From assembly GCA_965216875.1 (NCBI GenBank), contig OZ244207.1, positions 3,776,001 to 3,840,000 of the forward strand: a stretch of DNA of 64,000 bases, written 5' to 3'. This DNA is from Rubripirellula sp. (lineage in GTDB: Bacteria > Planctomycetota > Planctomycetia > Pirellulales > Pirellulaceae). The position numbers and the translations under genes are program-made. The notes under the pieces are model-generated. The model was not told the DNA's origin and made no database searches. It saw only the letters and a program-made list of their open reading frames with translations. How positions within the stretch are numbered: position 1 is the stretch's first letter; the number at the start of each line of letters is the position of its first letter. Below are positions 33,016 through 56,253 of the stretch, piece after piece.

Positions 33016-33545
<530 letters not shown>

Positions 33546-33725
33546 AGGAGGACGAGCGAGCATGACCACCAGCGGTAAGCCATTTTCTGGGCCCGCGAAG
33601 AAAAATCGTGTTTCACGCCGCGAAACACGGAAACCAGAAACCTCGCTTTTTACGTGGTTTTTGCGGCCAAGCAGCCGAACGCTTCATTCTTGCGACGACA
33701 AAATTGCTTCCGCGGCAAATCGCCG

Positions 33726-33754
33726 TTGACATCACAAAGCGACGGCTGTTAATC
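33726..33754 (+). promoter_or_regulatory. Sigma70-type promoter
   Basis: Perfect TTGACA at 33726-33731; GTTAAT/TTAATC 16-17 nt downstream. Confidence 0.6.
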
Positions 33755-33755
33755 C

Positions 33756-34128
33756 CCGACCAAGGTGATGACACGACCAACGTGATGCCCGTTCGTATTG
33801 ATCACGCTGACTCGGAATCACACAACCGTCCACTACAGAAGTTTCATCGTTGGTGAACGCTTTGCGGGAAACGTTCACTGGCCTCCCAACTTGGTCGGAG
33901 CATTCAATCGCTTGCCAAGACGATTTCTGGGTCAATCGTCTCGGTCGGCGGCTCCACGTTGAAACTTCACTGTGCATCGGGACGTCGTCTCTCGGCGGCG
34001 TTCCGATGCCAGGATACACTCCAACCGCGTGGGACGAGGGAACGATCAACCTCGTCCACGCTCTTCTGTCGGCGAGCTGCGACTAGCAGCAAGGGAACTT
34101 GCTGAGCCCCTGTTTGCTCGTGATGAAA
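33756..34128 (+). ncRNA. Unassigned highly structured RNA (~370 nt)
   Basis: At least seven helices of 7-16 bp, G-U wobbles and a GGAA tetraloop favouring the + strand; no convincing ORF. Confidence 0.6.
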
Positions 34129-34137
34129 TGCGAGATG

Positions 34138-34209
34138 AGGGACTCGTGGCCTCGTCCACTACGAGGTGTGATGGGAGGTTTGAGGGACTCGTGGCCTCGT
34201 CCACTACGA
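34138..34209. repeat. REP doublet GGGACTCGTGGCCTCGTCCACTACG
   Basis: Two direct copies; same family at 17263 and 42636-42737. Confidence 0.85.
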
Positions 34210-55234: not shown

Positions 55235-56253
55235 AGCTCTTAGCCCGGGGGGCGGAACAAGAACTGCCGGGGTCGTGAGACCCCGGACCTGAGTGCGAAG
55301 ATTGACTAAGCCCGGTGGGCGACACAATTCAAATCTGTCGCCCTGCGGGCTGAATCGATTCTGCTCGTATTCCGGTGGCTCACGCCACCGGCAGGCATAT
55401 GCCGGCCTCCGGCCTAAACGCCACCCGCGCAAGTAGCTCTTAGCCCGGAGGGCGGAACAAGAACTGCCGGGGTCGTGAGACCCCGGACCTGAGTGCGAAG
55501 ATTTGCTAAGCCCGGAGGGCGACACATTTCGAATCTGTCGCCCTCCGGGCTGAATCGATTCTGCTCGTATTCCGGTGGCTAACGCCACCGGCAAGAATAT
55601 GCCGGCCTCCGGCCTAAACGCCACCCGCGCAAGTAGCTCTTAGCCCGGAGGGCGGAACAAGAACTGCCGGGGTCGTGAGACCCCGGACCTGTGTGCGAAG
55701 ATTTGCTAAGCCCGGAGGGCGACACAATTCGAAGCTGTCGCCCTACGGGCTAAATCGATGTTGCTCGTATTCCGGTGGCTAACGCCACCGGCAAGCATAT
55801 GCCGGCCTCCGGCCTAAGCCCTACCGGCGCGGCAGCTCTCAGCCCGGAGGGCGGAATAAGAACTGACGGGGGCGTGAGCCCCCGGAACTGAATGCGAAGA
55901 TTGACTGAGCCCGAAGGGTGACACATTTCGAATCTGTCGCCCTCCGGGCTGAATCGATTCTGCTCGTATTCCGGTGGCTCACGCCACCGGCAGGCATATG
56001 CCGGCCTCCGGCCTAAACACGACCAGCGCGGCAGCTCTTAGCCCGGAGGGCGGAACAAGAACTGCCGGGGTCGTGAGACCCCGGACCTGAGTGCGAAGAT
56101 TTGCTAAGCCCGGGGGCGACACATTTCGAATCTGTCGCCCTCCGGGCTGAATCGATTCTGCTCGTATTCCGGTGGCTAACGCCACCGGCAAGAATATGCC
56201 GGCCTCCGGCCTAAACGCCACCGGCAGGCATATGCCGCGGCCGTCCGGCCTAA
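55235..56253. repeat. Tandem array of five ~200-bp palindrome-rich units (BIME-like)
   Basis: Unit starts at 55235, 55435, 55635, 55834 and 56033; each has several internal inverted repeats. Confidence 0.95.

Follow-up and report, generated by a model that had tools for sequence, protein, structure and literature searches.

An undescribed class of structured RNA in Planctomycetia

Locus, extent and fold

The window, a stretch of 64,000 nucleotides of a Rubripirellula genome, carries on the plus strand a conserved RNA fold of 182 nt (33838-34019) ahead of the genes LRR-pepP-accB-accC. A preliminary description of this region had proposed a structured RNA of approximately 370 nt. The conserved unit is smaller: conservation ended at about 33838 and at about 34019, even inside the genus, thus a length of ~182 nt has to be assumed rather than 370 nt. 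Relatives identified by BLASTN in 9 of 60 other genomes were all confined to 33820-34019, and copies of the same genus diverged directly after CAGGATACAC as well as in the leader. The folding stability in comparison to shuffled sequences peaked in 33838-34019 (z -9.0), was at chance level in the 5' part (33757-33837, z 0.08) and had a z of -2.2 in 34071-34128. For the entire region the stable fold was confirmed, with a z of -4.47 for 33750-34130, better than all 100 shuffles. The six nested helices described before were all present, the hairpin 34027-39/34050-61 with about 12 bp and a bulge.

A sigma-70-type promoter is predicted on the plus strand at 33726-33755, with the -35 element TTGACA at 33726-31 and an extended -10 element of TG (33747-48) and TAATCC (33750-55). 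The -35 hexamer of the preliminary description is conserved, its -10 element (GTTAAT or TTAATC) was placed in the wrong register; the conserved form in ten loci is TG-n-TAATCC with an 18-nt spacer. GTTGACA, TG, TA and one C of the promoter were invariant in ten aligned loci, the distance to helix P1 varied. A generic promoter scan did not call the promoter of the window. Transcription is predicted to start on the plus strand at about 33761-33763. The 5' leader (33761-33837, plus strand) is not conserved and A/C-rich directly 5' of P1; composition and a z of 0.08 suggest that it is likely trimmed or inert.

Covariation defined a minimal core on the plus strand (33838-33968), a four-way junction that has P1 (33838-33849 paired to 33957-33968) as its closing helix. 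In an alignment of 92 homologues, all 12 pairs of P1 had changes on both sides. The core spans 130-138 nt (interquartile, 236 sequences), and the core covariance model R3 matched the window at 33836-33970 with 101.6 bits. According to the alignments, hairpin P2 (33853-33878) has a near-invariant UUU-GCGG-GAA top with the loop GCGG at 33864-67. The hairpin P3 (33880-33896) is short and variable, in most Pirellulales of the type CCC-UCCU-GGG; it was 89.9 % paired in the alignment and had a pair probability of 0.97-0.99 in the window sequence. The long arm P4 (33897-33955) is built of GGAGC/GCUCC, an internal loop, a middle stem and the terminal stem 33918-25/33934-41, and ends in the 8-nt loop UCUGGGUC (33926-33) containing UGGGUC. 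Outside of the junction follows the 3' hairpin P5 (33970-34019), composed of CUG/CAG plus 33974-89/33994-34009 and then a CAGG(G/A)AWCA tail; P2 to P5 all lie on the plus strand. Some lineages lack P5 and have a U run directly 3' of P1, thus the minimal RNA comprises about 132 nt. Copies in the family f97 (L187, L261-L263) possess a conserved 5' leader hairpin, CCAGCGGGCC...GGCC, that was not observed elsewhere.

Downstream of the conserved unit, a non-conserved hairpin with a U-rich tract (34027-34069, plus strand, z -4.4) is the likely terminator in this genome. We infer this role, since the copy failed both the hairpin and U-run test applied to the loci and the generic scan. The primary transcript in this genome is predicted to have a length of approximately 310 nt. 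Two families of REP-like repeats flank the RNA (33258-33347, 33459-33547, 34136-34164 and 34181-34209) and are represented genome-wide by about 9 and 141 copies. Directly 5' of P1, the 10-mer CGTCCACTAC resembles the 141-copy repeat, as does the 3' arm of the hairpin at 34027-34061.

Alternative pairings had been described in addition to the nested helices. The four perfect complements of 7-9 bp do exist, they are within the reach of chance and not conserved; 13 perfect stems of at least 7 bp were observed versus 4.8 in shuffled sequences. The pairing 33757-64/33890-97 had a pair probability of 0.0 in a model that does not score pseudoknots. The other three would break P1, itself at a pair probability of 0.96-1.0, and the partners outside of the conserved unit were not conserved among homologues.

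RNase P RNA, tmRNA and SRP RNA gave no match in the window with Rfam and ARAGORN, and all three were found elsewhere in the genome, in agreement with the first assessment, which had found no signatures of them; a tRNA match was likewise absent. Against Rfam, nothing in the window reached the gathering level, only chance matches off the core appeared at E up to 10, and ten homologous loci yielded no match. A credible ORF is indeed lacking: three overlapping ORFs had no Pfam match, and the distance between loop 2 and loop 4 of the homologues (63-65 nt, interquartile) was spread across the three frames (71/95/70) and is not a multiple of three. In the same genome, large tRNA arrays with 14 and 31 genes are located at C1:591000-594748 and 628016-632638, a small tRNA cluster lies near 606699-608012, and ARAGORN called a tRNA-Pyl at 3282034 and a tRNA-SeC at 7784436. 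At 55438-56152, the window contains four spaced, near-palindromic structured stretches of about 115 nt; R3 scored them weakly on either strand, and they probably form a repeat array.

Homologues, covariation and distribution

A sequence pattern of the two loops recovered at least 120 loci from a collection of species genomes. Among the 80 titled matches listed, 74 were Planctomycetota and four came from other phyla; three of these four were scored and all failed the covariance model. Fourteen of 138 pattern matches were discarded as chance matches without the fold (L029, L031, L032, L034, L112, L131, L140-L147), six after scoring with model R2 (≤12.6 bits) and the other eight by their likeness to those. 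A match titled Ca. Kuenenia (L064), a Pirellula-like copy on a contig of 2.7 kb, was treated as likely mis-binned. The MAFFT alignment A3 comprised 92 non-redundant of 122 full-length cores at a redundancy filter of 85 %, with L017, L113 and L132 excluded as atypical.

In the consensus of the 92 copies, P1 closes a four-way junction with the arms P2, P3 and P4, and P5 follows. In this alignment 88.9 % of the cells were paired and 57 of 66 pairs had changes on both sides. The covariation score of 0.487 exceeded that of shuffled alignments (0.238, with none of 500 shuffles reaching the observed value) and that of slid partners (0.08-0.12). A more divergent core set of 64 sequences had both-side changes in 46 of 48 pairs and a score of 0.544 versus 0.262. 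Among 238 unique sequences, metagenome copies included, pairs of the nested helices headed the mutual-information ranking, although for P1 this evidence is circular, the set having been selected by the closing helix. No signal for a pseudoknot was present in these sequences, and the pseudoknots of loop 2 with loop 3 and of loop 3 with the tail did not covary. Paired positions of the homologues contained 687 G-U versus 126 A-C combinations; by this excess, the fold is that of an RNA read from the plus strand. The pattern-found homologues had been selected for both loops, so the invariance of the loops rests on 36 model-found copies: GGGUC of loop 4 and CGG of loop 2 were present in 36/36, the first G of loop 2 in 35/36. 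A covarying secondary structure in the absence of a coding signal fits an orphan stand-alone structured ncRNA.

Within the genome of 8.26 Mb the region occurs once, which extends the single-copy observation beyond the window. Among 151 genomes of the class, 62 were positive with model R2, each for one copy, and thus not for the dispersed copies of a MITE. Positive were 33/36 Pirellulales (the genome of the window not counted), 20/36 genomes of the family f26, likely the Planctomycetaceae, 4/5 of f101, 2/31 of f97 and 0/36 of f96. A phylum-wide draw of 151 genomes had eight matches, all in the class of the window; in the other classes of Planctomycetota in this draw the RNA was not found. Application of the core model R3 to 40 genomes missed by R2 revealed four convincing extra copies (G283, G307, G337, G217), none in G231, G256, G050, G238 and G258, and weak matches in G250, G253 and G260 that were rejected on inspection. 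The searches score only a share of the candidates, and negatives are to be read as not found in those searched. With 3/36 Pirellulales, 16/36 genomes of f26 and most of f96 and f97 without a detected copy, the RNA is not universal. Beside mraY, one of 30 loci matched R2, in a genome of f26, and unfiltered R3 had 0/24 loci below an E of 0.05. Searches of 72,556 plasmid and 50,697 phage records were without a match, and eight viral pattern matches were dismissed as chance hits. A sediment contig, probably of DNA origin, carries a relative of the core.

Genomic context and promoter

The commonest site of the RNA, across f26 and several Pirellulales, was between murF and mraY in the order murE-murF-RNA-mraY-murG. 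Upstream Mur ligases occurred at 54/124 loci, of which about 40 had short flanks only. The interval between murF and mraY is likely the ancestral site. In several Pirellulales (L021, L013) a truncated or degenerate MurF-like ORF of 153-311 aa lies between murE and the RNA, retained after the loss of mraY. In the clade of the window, the RNA precedes LRR-pepP-accB-accC, a context confined to that clade. At the remaining loci the neighbours are unrelated enzymes; the RNA has moved repeatedly. At six loci the downstream gene is convergent and Pfam-confirmed, in a scan that covered 60 of 78 neighbour ORFs.

A promoter of the type TTGAC...TGnTA was present in 13/49 loci outside the mur context versus 0/42 loci adjacent to mur genes, for a pattern devised after inspection of the promoter in the window, with many of the 13 loci being kin and with loci of too short flanks counted as outside the mur context. 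Control stretches had one match each (control 1/49). The -10 element preceded P1 by 14-82 nt in the 13 loci. A distant lineage has its own TTGCAA...TATA promoter and a U-run terminator. A hairpin with a U run followed 3' of the RNA in 34/91 loci, as counted without a control. Relocation among unrelated genes, the gain of a promoter outside the operon and the single copy are most simply explained by a trans-acting RNA gene. Covariation, order-wide conservation in single copy and conservation of the promoter support the claim of a novel ncRNA that is structured and possesses a promoter of its own.

Proposed function and comparison with known systems

We assign a probability of about one half to the reading that a stand-alone ncRNA, likely transcribed as such, acts in trans and presents its loops to a protein distinct from RNA polymerase, as scaffold or decoy. 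The letters of the helices drift freely, the letters of the loops and the lengths of the arms are fixed, which points to an RNA recognized by a protein. The lack of a conserved switch and of a long exposed seed also fits a recognition of shape and loops by a protein. The RNA may have originated between murF and mraY in the ancestor of Pirellulales and Planctomycetales, where it would have been read within the mur operon. After its moves, only copies under a usable promoter would have been retained. The variable 5' leader would be processed away or disregarded, and the RNA may end 3' at a terminator located behind P5 or, alternatively, at P1 followed by a U run. Both G-rich loops are predicted to be displayed at a fixed spacing to the protein. 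Rather doubtful is a wider proposal, in which the RNA is the subunit of an undescribed RNP of budding planctomycetes, born in the dcw cluster and outliving the erosion of mur and mraY, that would now regulate cell cycle, envelope or transcription in these FtsZ-less dividers.

A second RNA polymerase-binding decoy, similar to 6S, Ms1 or CoRP in action and different in fold, is the first alternative, and we regard it as unlikely. The accessible text of PMC5673643 reports 6S RNA as missing in Pirellulales, thus the RNA was first considered as the missing planctomycete 6S. The Rfam model RF00013 matched 87/151 genomes of the phylum set and 103/151 of the class set. It was positive in 57/67 genomes of f96 and f97, where the new RNA is mostly undetected, and in 4/36 Pirellulales (4/40 in another set). 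This complementary pattern speaks for a decoy, together with the size of ~180 nt, the single copy, the closing stem and the precedent of several structurally distinct RNA polymerase-binding RNAs (accessible part of PMC11077062). An orthologue of 6S was rejected: in 28 of 62 RNA-positive genomes RF00013 matched a distinct locus elsewhere, which also argues against a second decoy, and the RNA did not match the Rfam 6S models. Conversely, model R3 scored 6S loci with ≤12.4 bits and likewise did not recognize RNase P and SRP loci. In place of the single-stranded central bubble, the new RNA has a four-way junction with P2 and P3. A motif search indicated divergent 6S-like sequences missed by Rfam in many Pirellulales, including the RNA-positive genomes G060 and G040, as judged from reading the listed matches, the tally itself being at control level. 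The complementary distribution of 6S and the new RNA is therefore largely a detection artefact.

The divergent 6S-like RNAs of Pirellulales have 210-230 nt (L388-L391, L395, L398, L401, L409, L411) and score below or near the cut-off of RF00013. The gene beside them, checked at four loci, is presumably larE-like. Their presence speaks against 6S being absent from the order, as had been reported. In the genome of the window, no 6S was detected by Rfam, HMM, motif or synteny, which is in line with a decoy and leaves a small chance of a 6S-like role. A partial 6S motif near C1:4924430-4924600 had no convincing fold. Were RNA polymerase the partner, the RNA would join a known functional kind; fold and family would remain new.

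Control in cis was the second alternative: a riboswitch, an attenuator or a structure in the murE-murF 3'-UTR would regulate mraY and murG and would have been reused upstream of LRR-pepP-accBC. The commonest site in the dcw cluster immediately 5' of mraY is in line with this, as is a U run after P1 just ahead of mraY in some genomes of f26, and a ligand might be bound in a pocket formed by the invariant loops. The preliminary description had likewise considered a switch-like leader of the LRR, peptidase and accBC genes. Against such a leader stand the limitation of this context to one clade and the downstream genes at other loci, which are unrelated after relocation or face the RNA; the RNA does not consistently precede genes of related function in the same orientation. 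A leader with alternative folds is not supported, given the terminators often placed 3' of the RNA and the absence of a conserved alternative fold or pseudoknot in the 238 sequences. The RNA was kept where mraY was lost, and murF and mraY abut without the RNA in G165 and G194. A coupling to MurE was rejected, since both occur independently: murE is 0.58 Mb distant from the RNA in the genome of the window, three RNA-positive genomes (G310, G217, G280) had no murE match and six RNA-negative genomes had one. Altogether, a cis element appears improbable.

Equally improbable is a small RNA that acts by base pairing, with its UGGGUC loop, and possibly its GCGG loop, binding a conserved target, e.g. 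mRNAs or the 3' ends of tRNAs. Pairing of UGG to CCA is known from the T-box and the P-loop. The conserved sequence is restricted to the exposed G-rich loops, and the invariant loop of 8 nt could equally serve as a pairing site, but loops of 4 and 8 nt are short for a seed and the complementarity to the rRNA operon of the genome was at chance (p 0.23-0.98). A DNA-level element or mobile remnant (MITE, REP-like element or ssDNA hairpin), as might be suggested by the frequent change of place and the flanking REP-like repeats, is highly improbable in view of one copy per genome versus 9 and 141 for the flanking repeats, the lack of plasmid and phage matches and of a transposase among the 60 neighbours scanned, the bias of G-U over A-C and the bracketing by promoter and terminator. 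Other readings, such as catalysis, share the remainder.

We conclude that Planctomycetia possess a previously undescribed class of RNA whose structure is well supported and whose newness lies in fold and family. To our knowledge, stand-alone bacterial RNAs of such structure and order-wide conservation are rare. Characterized RNAs of this kind hold central roles. Literature searches yielded no description of such an RNA for Planctomycetia, although a supplementary listing could exist; term searches had no match in the main text and one supplement of PMC8632094, in the main text of PMC11109978 and in the main text of two preprints of 2026, and the accessible part of a 2025 review of the phylum had no passage on ncRNA (PMC12673574). 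The role of the RNA is directly testable, given the defined fold, two mutable loops, the natural gain and loss of a promoter, natural absences and the genetic tools: deletion and transposon methods exist for this group, and the mur and mraY genes are reported as non-essential in P. limnophila (both from the accessible part of PMC10632474).

Several known systems are similar in part. A mimicry of rRNA, by the likeness of loop 4 to the 23S P-loop, was rejected, as the likeness to the rRNA operon was also at chance (p 0.23-0.98). Y RNAs (YrlA), the partners of Ro60, are likewise small, have base-paired termini and contain a domain of several arms. The new RNA differs in having no Rfam match, and a Y RNA was rejected, as Ro60 was present in 0/5 genomes tested, three of them RNA-positive. 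With the CsrA sponges CsrB and RsmY it shares a host rich in csrA paralogues and GGA in loop 2 and the 3' tail; unlike these, it has only two conserved GGA and a rigid long-range fold. GGA was not enriched in the leader (77 versus 67.2), and CsrA was present in 151/151 genomes, RNA-positive or not, with 2-17 csrA-like genes each and seven in the genome of the window. A CsrA sponge was rejected on these grounds. No CsrA-sequestering RNA was identified in the sample of 151 genomes of the class. The raiA motif and similar orphan ncRNAs, as described in the accessible parts of PMC10861870 and PMC12968392, are also highly structured, lineage-wide, embedded in operons and found by covariation. In comparison to the raiA motif, the new RNA has no Rfam match, a size of ~130-180 nt and no pseudoknot signal, and among the genomes searched it was found only in Planctomycetia. 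Similar as well are 6S RNA (RF00013), Ms1 and CoRP, which are single-copy and stand-alone, have about 180 nt and stem-closed ends and keep structure over sequence. The models do not cross-match. These RNAs form a rod with a central bubble, whereas the new RNA forms a four-way junction and adds two invariant hairpin loops and an external 3' hairpin.
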